A stretch of 64,000 nt of DNA from a plasmid. Positions 15,001 through 18,000 of this stretch are shown piece by piece. Position 1 is the first letter of the stretch. Each line of letters opens with the position of its first letter. The position numbers were made by a program. The stretch lies in NCBI RefSeq assembly GCF_988243305.1, contig NZ_OZ547139.1. One strand, 5' to 3'.

Positions 15001-18000
15001 GAAGGATGAAAAAGCTGCTTCATTACTGTTTTGTTTTTTACCTCATCTGAGGCCGCTTGTAAATGCTGAGGCTGTTTTTCATTTGCAATTGTGTTTTTGT
15101 AAAGCAAATTTTTACCCCCCTGATCTACATGTCCATAACCATGCAAAACAATTCCACTTTCGGCATTTTTATTGATTGCTGAAAGAGTCATATACGTTTT
15201 CCAGTTTCCGTCTTTATCAATACGCTTGTTCACTTTTCCAATCACGCTATGGTACTCACCGGACTCCTTATCCTTTGCGATCCCCTGCATGAATCCTTTA
15301 CGCGACTCAACAAGGAAATAATCTGGGCGTTCGCCTTTTTTATGCGGTGCGATCAGCAAAGGTGTACCCGCGGTTTTTGACTCTTGAGGGAGTTTATAGC
15401 CTGTGGGCTTTGTCATGCTTTCTGGAGCTGGCTTACCATTAGGCAGGAACCAGTACAGTTCTTTTTCAGGCACGGCCTCACGGCTGAGATCAACACCGGT
15501 AATCTGCTGAATTGTTGTGCGGAGCTTCTGGAAGGTTGCAGCATCATACGGAACCAGTTCAGAAGGCTTATAGGCCTGTTCATTCCCTGCTGTTGGCTGT
15601 GGGTATACAGGCTTTACTTCCCACTCATTACGTTTGGTCTGGATAGTTTCATAACGAACGATCTTGTTGCTTTCATCACGGACAGGTGCATTCACCTCAA
15701 CATCCACAAATCCCAGCTTTCTGACTGTAACAAGACGTTCTGTGTCTACACCAGCATCTTTAACCGCTCTCTCAAGGTCTTTCCCCCAGAGTGTCTTCTC
15801 TCCATGTTCATTTTTGAGGGTGACAAAGTAGTTCATGGATTCATCTTCTTTCCACTCATACTTAGCACGTCCATGCGCGACGATAACGCCTTTCTCCCAG
15901 GGTTCCCCTGCAGCTTTATCTTCCTTTTGAGTATCAGATGCATTCTGCTTCTTCGGCTGCACAGAGGCCGATTCTTCCCAGCGCATTCCATTCTGCTGAA
16001 CTGATGAATTTGTCTTTTCGTTTGCCCCTTCCTGCTTATTCGCATTTGAATCAGCAACATTTTCTTTTGCCGTTTCTTTTGCTGTTTCATTTGCTTTTTT
16101 GAGTTCGAGCAATTTAACCCTTTGTTCTGGGTTAGTCAGTTTCACCTCAATGTTGTATTCACTGATAAGGTTAAACACTCGCTCTTTAAATTCGTCACTG
16201 CCGGTGATTTCAATACCACGATGATGTTGCTTATCCGCGGTTAGAACGGCCGCCAGGATCATCTCGTCACTCTGGCTGGCTTCAGGGGTAGCCATACGCA
16301 GATGTGAGCCGTAATCGTAAAACGCATCCTGTCCATCAAGCGTATACGCCGTATAATCTTTCTCTGCTCTGTACCCAAACCGGGCAATTAACCCTTCCAG
16401 GTCTATACGTTCTTTTGGGGGCGTTTCTGCATTATCGTTGGTTGCCCAGCGTATGCCGTTTTCCAGTTCTTCGTTTGTTTTTTTCTTCTCCTCGGTTTCA
16501 TTTTCAGCCGGGGCGGTATTAGCTACAGATTCGCTGGGCGCTATCCTTTCAGGCTTTTGCTGAGCGGAGTCAGTTGTTTCACCGCCAAAGGCCATCATAG
16601 CGGCATACGCCTCAAGATCACTGGCGCTATTACTCTCTTCATCATCGCCGTCTCGATCTGTTGGTGCGGTGTATTCCGGTTCAGCAGCTGCAGGGGTGCT
16701 GGACACCGGCACAGCTTCCTCCGGTTCGGCAGCTGCAGGGGCGCTGGCCACCGGCGCGGTTTCCTCCGGTTCGGCAGCTGCAGGGGCGCTGGCCACCGGC
16801 GCGGTTTCCTCCGGTTCAGCAGCTGCAGGGGCGCTGGCCACCGGCGCGACTTCCACCGGTTCAGCAGCTGCAGGGGCGCTGGCCACCGGCGCGGTTTCCT
16901 CCGGTTCAGCAGCTGCAGGGGCGCTGGCCACCGGCGCGGCTTCCACCGCTTCAGCAGCTGCAGGGGCGCTGGCCACCGGCGCGGTTTCCTCCGGTTCGGC
17001 AGCTGCAGGGGCGCTGGCCACCGGCGCGACTTCCACCGGTTCATCAGCTGCAGGGGCGCTGGCCACCGGCGCGGCTTCCACCGCTTCAGCAGCTGCAGGG
17101 GCGCTGGCCACCGGCGCGGTTTCCTCCGGTTCGGCAGCTGCAGGGGCGCTGGCCACCGGCGCGGTTTCCTCCGGTTCGGCAGCTGCAGGGGCGCTGGCCA
17201 CCGGCGCGGCTTTTTCAGGATCTGCAACGGCAGCGCTGTCAGTCGAGCTGTGATTAACGTCAGTAATGTTCGGGTTATCAGTCGGCATAGTGTCTACCCT
17301 GTTCATTTGATTAATGGCTCCTTCTACCTGCAATCTGACTTGCTCCAGCCCTTCAGAGACATGCAAATCGTTGTAGTCAGTAAGCCCTTCTTTCGGGTTG
17401 CTAAAGGCAGGGACCAGAACATGGCCGGCAGTCAGCTCTGCAGCTTCTGTCGCTTTTTCTAGCCCAACGTTCTCGTCTTTATAAATGTCATTGTCAGCAA
17501 GGAAGTAATGAGTGCTGTTTGGAAAGGTGTCTTTCAGGCGGCCAGCAACTTCCACCATGTTGCCGGCATTAACCGTCATGATCACAGGCTGATTGATGGC
17601 TTCGCTGATACTGGCTGCTGTCGCATATCCCTCGGCATAAAGCAGGTTGTCACCATCCTTCAGTTGACCACCCACAACGAAAAAACTCCCCCATGCCTGG
17701 CCGTCTTTTTCAAGGTGTTTACTACCGTCGGACCAGATGCGCTCAAGGGTCCTGAACTCGCCATCAGCATTAAACAGAGGGATCACAACGTTGCCCCGCT
17801 CATCAGCTTTAAGGCCGTTAGCGGCAATGACCTGTTTGTTTTTCAGGTATGCCAGATCTCCCGTGGCATCCGGAAGCCGGTTATATTCTTCCATCAACCG
17901 GTTAGCGGTCTGATCAAACTTATCCGCTTGCGCTGCAGCTCTTTGTTCACGCCTTGCCGCAGCATCAGCACGGAGCATGGCCATTTGTTCAGGGTTAGGG

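Follow-up and report, generated by a model that had tools for sequence, protein, structure and literature searches.

A plasmid stretch of 64,000 nucleotides (NCBI RefSeq assembly GCF_988243305.1, contig NZ_OZ547139.1; hereafter the window) carries pri, the gene for a Sog/TraC-type conjugative primase of 1175 amino acids (aa), on the minus strand at 14922-18449, flanked by traK/icmT and traL within the tra operon of IncL/M plasmids. Within this open reading frame (ORF) lies an in-frame array of 45-bp tandem repeats, which among IncL/M plasmids varies between 2 and 12 units with conserved flanks and a preserved frame. Tandem Repeats Finder reported it as the sole strong array of the window, at 16675-17212, nearly perfect with a period of 45 bp, 12.0 copies, 93 % matches, no indels and a score of 908. 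Set in codon register, the array covers 16668-17207 on the minus strand (running from 17207 to 16668), a total of 540 bp that encodes aa 415-594 as twelve in-frame units of 15 aa with the consensus APVASAPAAAEPEET. An earlier note on this DNA had placed a tandem array correctly at this position but read it as 9-10 copies of 60 bp, 540 bp being the product of 12 × 45 as well as of 9 × 60; that the primase gene is located on the minus strand went unremarked.

Unit typing of the 12-unit array revealed four mutually identical units and two further identical pairs. Internal units differ at 1-5 positions, the final unit VPVSSTPAAAEPEYT diverges most. The encoded peptide is dominated by alanine (41 %), proline (19 %), glutamate (17 %) and valine (11 %), so that A, P and E account for 77 % of the residues. 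Its net charge amounts to -32, and only one of the 180 residues is aromatic or large and hydrophobic. The GC content is 74 % in the array and 48 % in the remainder of pri. Forty-five base pairs repeated twelve times at about 93 % identity cannot have originated by chance, and the array was seen in 941-946 independent plasmid records. With near-identical units arranged head to tail, a unit length that is a multiple of three and a location within an ORF, the array is an in-frame variable-number repeat, (APVASAPAAAEPEET)n; this assignment draws on Tandem Repeats Finder, the codon register, unit typing across 18 loci and the composition. The only repeat-family match to the array was Pfam Extensin_1 (PF02095), below threshold with 38.9 bits against a cut-off of 105. 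This likeness is purely compositional, and the array fits no curated repeat family.

Copy number among IncL/M plasmids

Eighteen IncL/M loci were picked to span differing match lengths, and their arrays were excised between conserved anchors. Twelve units were present in the window and in L001, 11 in L002 and L011, 10 in L003 and L008, 9 in L004 and L012, 8 in L014 and L015, 7 in L005, L007, L016 and L017, 6 in L013, 5 in L009 (R1215) and 2 in L010. The variants are separated by whole units. In 16 of the 18 loci the pri ORF was intact, with product lengths from 1025 to 1175 aa in steps of 15 aa. Plasmids of the OQ8211xx record series had 10, 8 and 2 copies. The genes of pCTX-M3 (IncM2) and pOXA-48 (IncL) are the same gene as the window pri, with 95-100 % nucleotide identity and the same traK-traL position, and differ only in the number and order of the units: pCTX-M3 has 5 (Pri of 1070 aa) and pOXA-48 mostly 10, unlike the 12 of the window.

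Several genes without a single difference over 2,988 nt outside the array had different copy numbers: 12 in the window versus 9 in L004; 10, 8 and 7 in L003, L014 and L005; 10 and 2 in L008 and L010, from which L015 with 8 units is one single-nucleotide polymorphism off. Because genes identical outside the array differ in copy number, the turnover of the array outpaces point substitution. Reading of the unit sequences showed that L010, with its two copies, has as its first unit a chimera of units 1 and 9 of the 10-copy array of the L008 type, which fits recombination or slippage in unit register. The suggestion of the earlier note that the array is a hotspot of length variation was thus borne out by the comparison of related plasmids, in which the repeat number was variable rather than invariant.

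To estimate how frequent the forms are, 60 records were sampled systematically from the 941 that matched. Copy numbers were deduced from the match spans, with the fetched loci as a check; the resulting counts are approximate. About 37 of the 60 records (~60 %) had 10 copies, namely the epidemic pOXA-48 plasmids of ~63.6-65.5 kb. Seven copies were found in about 10 records, one of them in the frameshifted form described below, 8 copies in 3, 5 copies in 3 and 6 copies in 2 records, while 12, 11, 9 and 2 copies occurred once each and a larger deletion once. An exact protein look-up in a collection of 15 billion proteins retrieved at least 1000 contigs for the 10-copy form, 555 for a second 7-copy lineage, 366 for 8 copies, 101 for 12 copies, 67 for 6 copies and 15 for 11 copies. 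A different event was observed in pKp41M (L018, NZ_KY781949.1): a 915-bp in-frame deletion in pri removed aa 335-639, i.e. the end of Toprim, the entire array and part of the downstream linker. The breakpoints share the microhomology GAAxCTGxAG, and MOB-suite still typed the plasmid as conjugative.

The array also leaves traces in sequence collections. Hundreds of partial Toprim proteins of 443-531 aa in the database terminate inside the array on contigs of 58-63 kb, which are essentially whole plasmids broken at the array alone; a homologue search with the N-terminal domain likewise returned mostly truncated 'partial' proteins. In a study of the within-patient evolution of pOXA-48, DelaFuente et al. 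dropped the variants at 48,500-48,853 of pOXA-48_K8, accession MT441554: Sanger sequencing exposed them as false Illumina calls in a zone of 'highly repeated nucleotides'. The array is located at 48,414-48,861 in OW969637.1 (L028, 1415-1862), a plasmid of 65,499 bp and hence of the same length as pOXA-48_K8. Assuming a coordinate origin shared with this proxy, the masked zone is the 45-bp array. In the 61,881-bp pOXA-48 reference NC_019154.1 (L026, 39,5xx), 11 bp (GGTGGCCAGCG) are missing in unit 3, equivalent to about 17073-17117 of the window, and exactly the same array sequence is present in L006, a record of the same length. The gap shifts the frame and splits pri into a 450-aa Toprim coding sequence and a 658-aa LPD7 coding sequence. 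It may be a sequencing error spread by reference-guided assembly or a genuine split gene.

Domain architecture of Pri and the predicted linker

The gene was identified from its ORF, its sequence identity, its genomic context and the published description of pri in pCTX-M3 (PMC6112013). It is 100 % identical to the gene in IncL/M plasmids including NC_019063 and NC_019889, where it is annotated as 'LPD7 domain-containing protein / DNA primase TraC'. Nearly all of the 946 plasmid records matching pri were typed IncL/M, MOBP, MPF_I and conjugative. The neighbourhood comprises traJ, traI, traH and nikB on one side and traM-traY on the other, with icmT/traK and traL directly adjoining.

The N-terminal folded primase domain (aa 1-387; 17289-18449, minus strand) contains DUF5710 at aa 10-61, Toprim_3 at aa 270-367 and the sequence EGYATA at aa 273-278. 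Toprim_3 was detected by Pfam with 30.3 bits against a cut-off of 27.2 in a scan of aa 1-400 alone; full-length scans with Pfam and NCBIfam miss Toprim, and the full-length Pfam scan yields just DUF5710 and LPD7 (aa 695-777). EGYATA is the primase-domain motif of Sog/TraC-like conjugative primases of the DnaG type. In an alignment of 30 homologues, A272, E273, G274 and T277 were invariant, Y275 and A278 nearly so. A structure model computed with AlphaFold2 from this family alignment was confident for aa 1-387, with a predicted local distance difference test (pLDDT) of about 90-98. For the N-terminal domain, Foldseek retrieved a T7 gp4 primase fragment and DnaG RNA-polymerase domains with a probability of 1.0; a sequence search of the PDB gave only a compositional match to a ribosomal protein. 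The Toprim domain, the EGYATA motif and the location in the tra operon together place Pri among the Sog/TraC-like primases.

Downstream of the primase domain, the pLDDT fell to about 30 over aa 388-678, and no secondary structure was modelled there apart from one short helix. This segment (16416-17288, minus strand; pLDDT <50, net charge -50) is a predicted disordered linker by model and composition. The array is thus predicted to be the core of an acidic, disordered linker of ~290 residues between the Toprim primase and the C-terminal domains. The description in the earlier note of in-frame repeats encoding a Pro/Ala/Glu-rich linker from Toprim to the C-terminal region agrees with Toprim_3, EGYATA, the Foldseek matches and the predicted disorder of aa 388-678. 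Confident domains (pLDDT >85) follow at aa ~680-793, 848-950 and 960-1150. According to Pfam, NCBIfam and the model, this folded C-terminal region (14922-16415, minus strand) consists of LPD7 (aa 695-777) and beta-rich domains at aa ~848-950 and 960-1150.

Two minor observations concern the C-terminal region. A weak similarity links Pri aa 825-943 (15621-15977, minus strand) to the C-terminal third of NF041450, a model of the MobP1 relaxase (E 1e-10, 41.5 bits, cut-off 200); by this resemblance the segment may be a domain common to relaxases and transferred primases. A second small in-frame repeat (12 bp × 3.2, 88 % matches) is located at 16061-16099 in a K/E/T/A-rich stretch downstream of LPD7 and is also kept in the pOXA-48 record L028 (2438-2476).

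A candidate internal start codon, ATG for M382 (17304-17306, minus strand), is preceded by GAAGGAG 11 nt upstream and lies 33 aa ahead of the array. The predicted product has 794 aa; subtraction of seven units of 15 aa gives 689 aa, equal to the internal-start product that was predicted for the 5-copy pri of pCTX-M3 (PMC6112013). Its counterpart would be SogS of the IncI1 plasmids R64 and ColIb-P9, which originates from an in-frame internal start, comprises 844 of 1255 aa and is devoid of the primase domain. By analogy, M382 may give rise to a SogS-like short form of Pri. Like Pri, the long form SogL has an N-terminal EGYATA/Toprim domain and a long C-terminal region with LPD7, and the neighbourhood of R64 sog (traJ-traK-...-sog-traL-traM) corresponds to that of pri. 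The two proteins share 30 % identity over aa 4-556 (PMC6112013). Sog has been shown to act as a primase and to pass into the recipient cell (cited in PMC6112013 and PMC12365149); by analogy with this IncI1 protein, Pri may enter the recipient as well. Deletion of sog reduces R64 transfer only about 10-fold, whereas deletion of pri abolishes transfer of pCTX-M3, which requires the gene for conjugation (PMC6112013). Silencing of pri destabilises pOXA-48 (PMC12361523).

Repeats in related primases

Homologues of the primase N-terminal domain were found in 4,097 plasmid records and among 9,982 representative proteins. Several homologues with 46-74 % identity carry tandem repeats straight after the primase domain, with the units PAAPAESASAAPVSLEDDAPAST (23 aa), KPAPATVAIDAEPVT (15 aa), AAALDNQEQAAAP (13 aa) and AEPAPVAAAEQN (12 aa); unit lengths of 17, 30 and 33 aa were seen in additional representatives. 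Homologues from Pantoea and Erwinia (68-70 % identity) contain a 15-aa repeat, AAAESAPAAPVASAT, that is clearly related to the IncL/M unit. The recent expansion proposed in the earlier note is therefore plausible, not so a new creation of the array: an old array type is turning over. Most of the 48 representatives scanned were without a repeat, many of them having a moderately A/P/E-rich stretch. In R64 sog, unlike in pri, the primase domain is not followed by a tandem repeat, and the inter-domain region is non-repetitive.

A second variable array, (AAPAPVAAAEQN)n with a unit of 36 bp, is present at the same boundary in the primase of MPF_T plasmids of ~30-50 kb (rep_cluster_312, e.g. NZ_MT039214.1), with 7.3 copies and 97 % matches in L019 (4342-4603). 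It resembles the array of pri in its position after a homologous domain (46 % identity), in its A/P/E-rich composition, in its frame and in its variability, but differs in unit length and sequence, plasmid backbone and mating-pair system. Twenty-five close relatives, L022-L025 among them, had 7, 3, 2, 1 or 0 copies, all in frame, and P0034 had at least 8. The zero-copy form was the commonest (14 of the 25 records by match span). This series from zero to at least eight copies reads like the birth and expansion of an array. Adjoining the 36-bp array, a 15-bp × 2.3 repeat (YGEQN) was also variable.

From these comparisons we conclude that the boundary between primase and linker is a permissive site, at which repeats arise and turn over repeatedly, that composition and disorder recur rather than sequence, and that one lineage or more can do without the linker repeats.

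Origin, role and surroundings of the array

We regard it as probable that the array encodes a passive, length-tolerant, acidic Ala/Pro-rich spacer and that the underlying minisatellite changes by slippage or unequal recombination. The in-frame minisatellite in pri would encode the core of a long disordered A/P/E-rich spacer by which the DnaG-type primase domain at the N-terminus is linked to the LPD7 and beta-rich domains at the C-terminus; in the short product predicted from the internal start, the spacer would be found close to the N-terminus. Whole units would be gained and lost, with slipped-strand mispairing of the nearly identical 45-bp units, or unequal recombination among them, as the most likely mechanism. 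The protein would tolerate a wide range of linker lengths, the copy number being mostly weakly constrained and near-neutral, and the conserved property would be composition and disorder rather than a precise length. Ala/Pro-rich linkers of similar composition, extended or disordered, connect folded domains in other proteins, e.g., the lipoyl-domain linkers of 2-oxo-acid dehydrogenase E2 and the Pro-rich spacer of TonB. The Pri linker, by comparison, is part of a plasmid protein of replication and transfer that is cytoplasmic or possibly translocated, rather than of a surface protein or a metabolic complex; it is strongly acidic and, with 180 aa of repeats in about 290 disordered residues, unusually long. 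In-frame variable repeats of bacterial proteins are known to shift protein length by whole units with the frame kept.

Some points weigh against this interpretation. The near-neutrality of the copy number is something that we only infer. The 10-copy form dominates, with about 37 of the 60 sampled records; this is probably due to the clonal success of pOXA-48, but it could also reflect an optimum length. A full-length IncL/M pri with zero units was not seen, the lowest number being 2, and a minimal linker may be required in IncL/M plasmids. Variable sites in the units were distributed 6:9:9 over the codon positions, an underpowered comparison in which purifying selection at the protein level was not demonstrated within IncL/M. 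Some of the deposited copy numbers or unit variants may be assembly or polishing errors. A separate test for concerted evolution gave no clear signal, with unit distances of 3.2-4.8 within arrays and 3.3-5.4 between arrays. A phase-variable on/off locus was considered and excluded because the unit length of 45 bp is a multiple of three, so that every whole-unit variant keeps the ORF open and the frame is never lost. The sole frameshift, in the pOXA-48 reference record, results from 11 bp lost within one unit, which leaves the number of units as it was; the loss is possibly an error of sequencing.

Could the copy number be adaptive? If the array tuned primase activity, domain coupling, translocation by type IV secretion or the ratio of the long to the short Pri product, variants might be selected per host or backbone. 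Several primase lineages have linkers assembled from repeats at this one boundary, possibly because an evolvable length was selected for. Successful lineages keep particular counts, with 10 units in pOXA-48 and 12 units in plasmids of the pNDM-HK type, and pri matters to conjugation (PMC6112013) and to plasmid stability (PMC12361523), so that changes could meet selection. Nevertheless, the forms from 2 to 12 copies are all found in plasmids typed conjugative, the MPF_T lineage is mostly zero-copy with 1 to at least 8 copies coexisting, and R64 Sog works without repeats. An association with the host genus was not seen in the fetched records, and lineage-specific stability is expected from clonal spread alone. 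We therefore consider adaptive tuning unlikely. The tuning of an exported primase proposed in the earlier note found no support either, since a 36-bp array ranging from 0 to at least 8 copies, with zero as the commonest state, favours tolerance. A broader variant of the idea, somewhat more doubtful still, is that a linker length derived from expandable repeats is itself under selection and was built repeatedly and independently by Sog/Pri primases, from at least six unrelated unit types at the same boundary. If so, linker length could be fitted to the distance to be bridged from the primase to those C-terminal domains that are associated with single-stranded DNA or secretion, or could, depending on the host, modify the way in which Pri or its short form accompanies the transferred strand, and IncL/M copy-number variants would differ measurably in transfer or establishment.

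Two further explanations question the variation or the peptide. That the array exists but its copy-number differences are collapsed or mis-polished repeats in public assemblies is suggested by up to 540 bp of near-identical units, which exceed short reads, by the hundreds of partial Toprim proteins that stop inside the array on 58-63 kb contigs, by the zone masked by DelaFuente et al. after Sanger sequencing had disproved Illumina variants, and by the 11-bp gap splitting pri in the pOXA-48 reference record. Such an artefact is nonetheless very improbable: identical unit order and count recur in dozens of complete records from independent laboratories, and all variants differ by whole units. 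At least 12 records with a length of about 63,454 bp have the 7-copy form and fall short of the 63,589-bp 10-copy form by exactly 135 bp; the RIVM series of one laboratory holds both 10- and 8-copy plasmids; and long-published sequences already differ, with 5 copies in pCTX-M3 (Pri of 1070 aa) and 5 in R1215. The 36-bp array varies likewise, though most of its alleles fit within single reads. A function at the DNA or RNA level is hardly credible, whether as iteron-like sites of protein binding, as a promoter or attenuator inside pri that acts on the tra genes downstream, or as a structured signal in the single strand that is transferred; the peptide would then be incidental. The GC content of 74 % is very high compared to the surroundings, each unit contains short palindromes (CTGCAG/CAGCTG, TGGCCA), and the single-stranded DNA folds slightly better than shuffled sequences (z = -2.6), but its centroid structure is essentially unpaired, promoter-like sites were not found in the array, terminator-like sites were at or below expectation, and a search of Rfam gave no match in the array. 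The arrays of homologues consist of unrelated DNA units encoding similar A/P/E-rich peptides, with periods that are always multiples of three, and an array can be wholly absent, as in R64 sog and in the zero-copy MPF_T form.

The passive spacer encoded by a length-variable minisatellite, which we favour, is an ordinary class of feature, namely a repeat-encoded, length-polymorphic disordered linker. Its importance derives from its location in a gene needed for the transfer and stability of IncL/M plasmids, which spread OXA-48, NDM-1, KPC and CTX-M-3. The gene pri was already known, and the repeat zone has been noted solely as an obstacle to sequencing, in the methods note that masks it (DelaFuente et al.); in the searchable literature, no account was found that describes the array as a variable in-frame repeat or reports its copy range or its recurrence over the primase family. 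Short-read assemblies of pOXA-48 break at the array and false variants arise there, and masking leaves real variation out of published catalogues. The split pri of NC_019154.1 is inherited by annotations and by reference-guided assemblies. The array explains plasmid size classes, e.g., 63,589 versus 63,454 bp, and with long reads or sizing by PCR it could become a cheap, high-resolution marker of pOXA-48-type plasmid lineages. The natural series of 2-12 units, together with 0 to at least 8 units in the second lineage, provides ready linker-length variants for the study of Sog-type primases.

Further features of the window were recorded. Genes for regulators of the H-NS and Hha/YmoA families lie at ~13849-14443 on the plus strand, between traM and traL just downstream of pri, as located via an identical plasmid record; silencing of the plasmid H-NS-like gene is reported to have destabilised pOXA-48 in the same CRISPR interference screen as pri (PMC12361523). 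The ORF of a DotH/IcmK-like protein (TraN; 11908-13059, minus strand) has a long Gln/Pro-rich N-terminal region of low complexity with a 21-bp × 2.2 repeat at 12729-12775, a segment that might vary in length. An accessory region at 43498-51059 and 59567-60871 comprises a pspF-like sigma-54 activator gene, pspA, an AmpC-type beta-lactamase gene or fragment and a Tn3-family transposase gene, with a translesion polymerase gene of the mucB/impB type further on. At 12-135 on the minus strand, Rfam identified the pseudoknot PK-repBA (118 bits), a regulatory element of the IncL/M repBA replicon.

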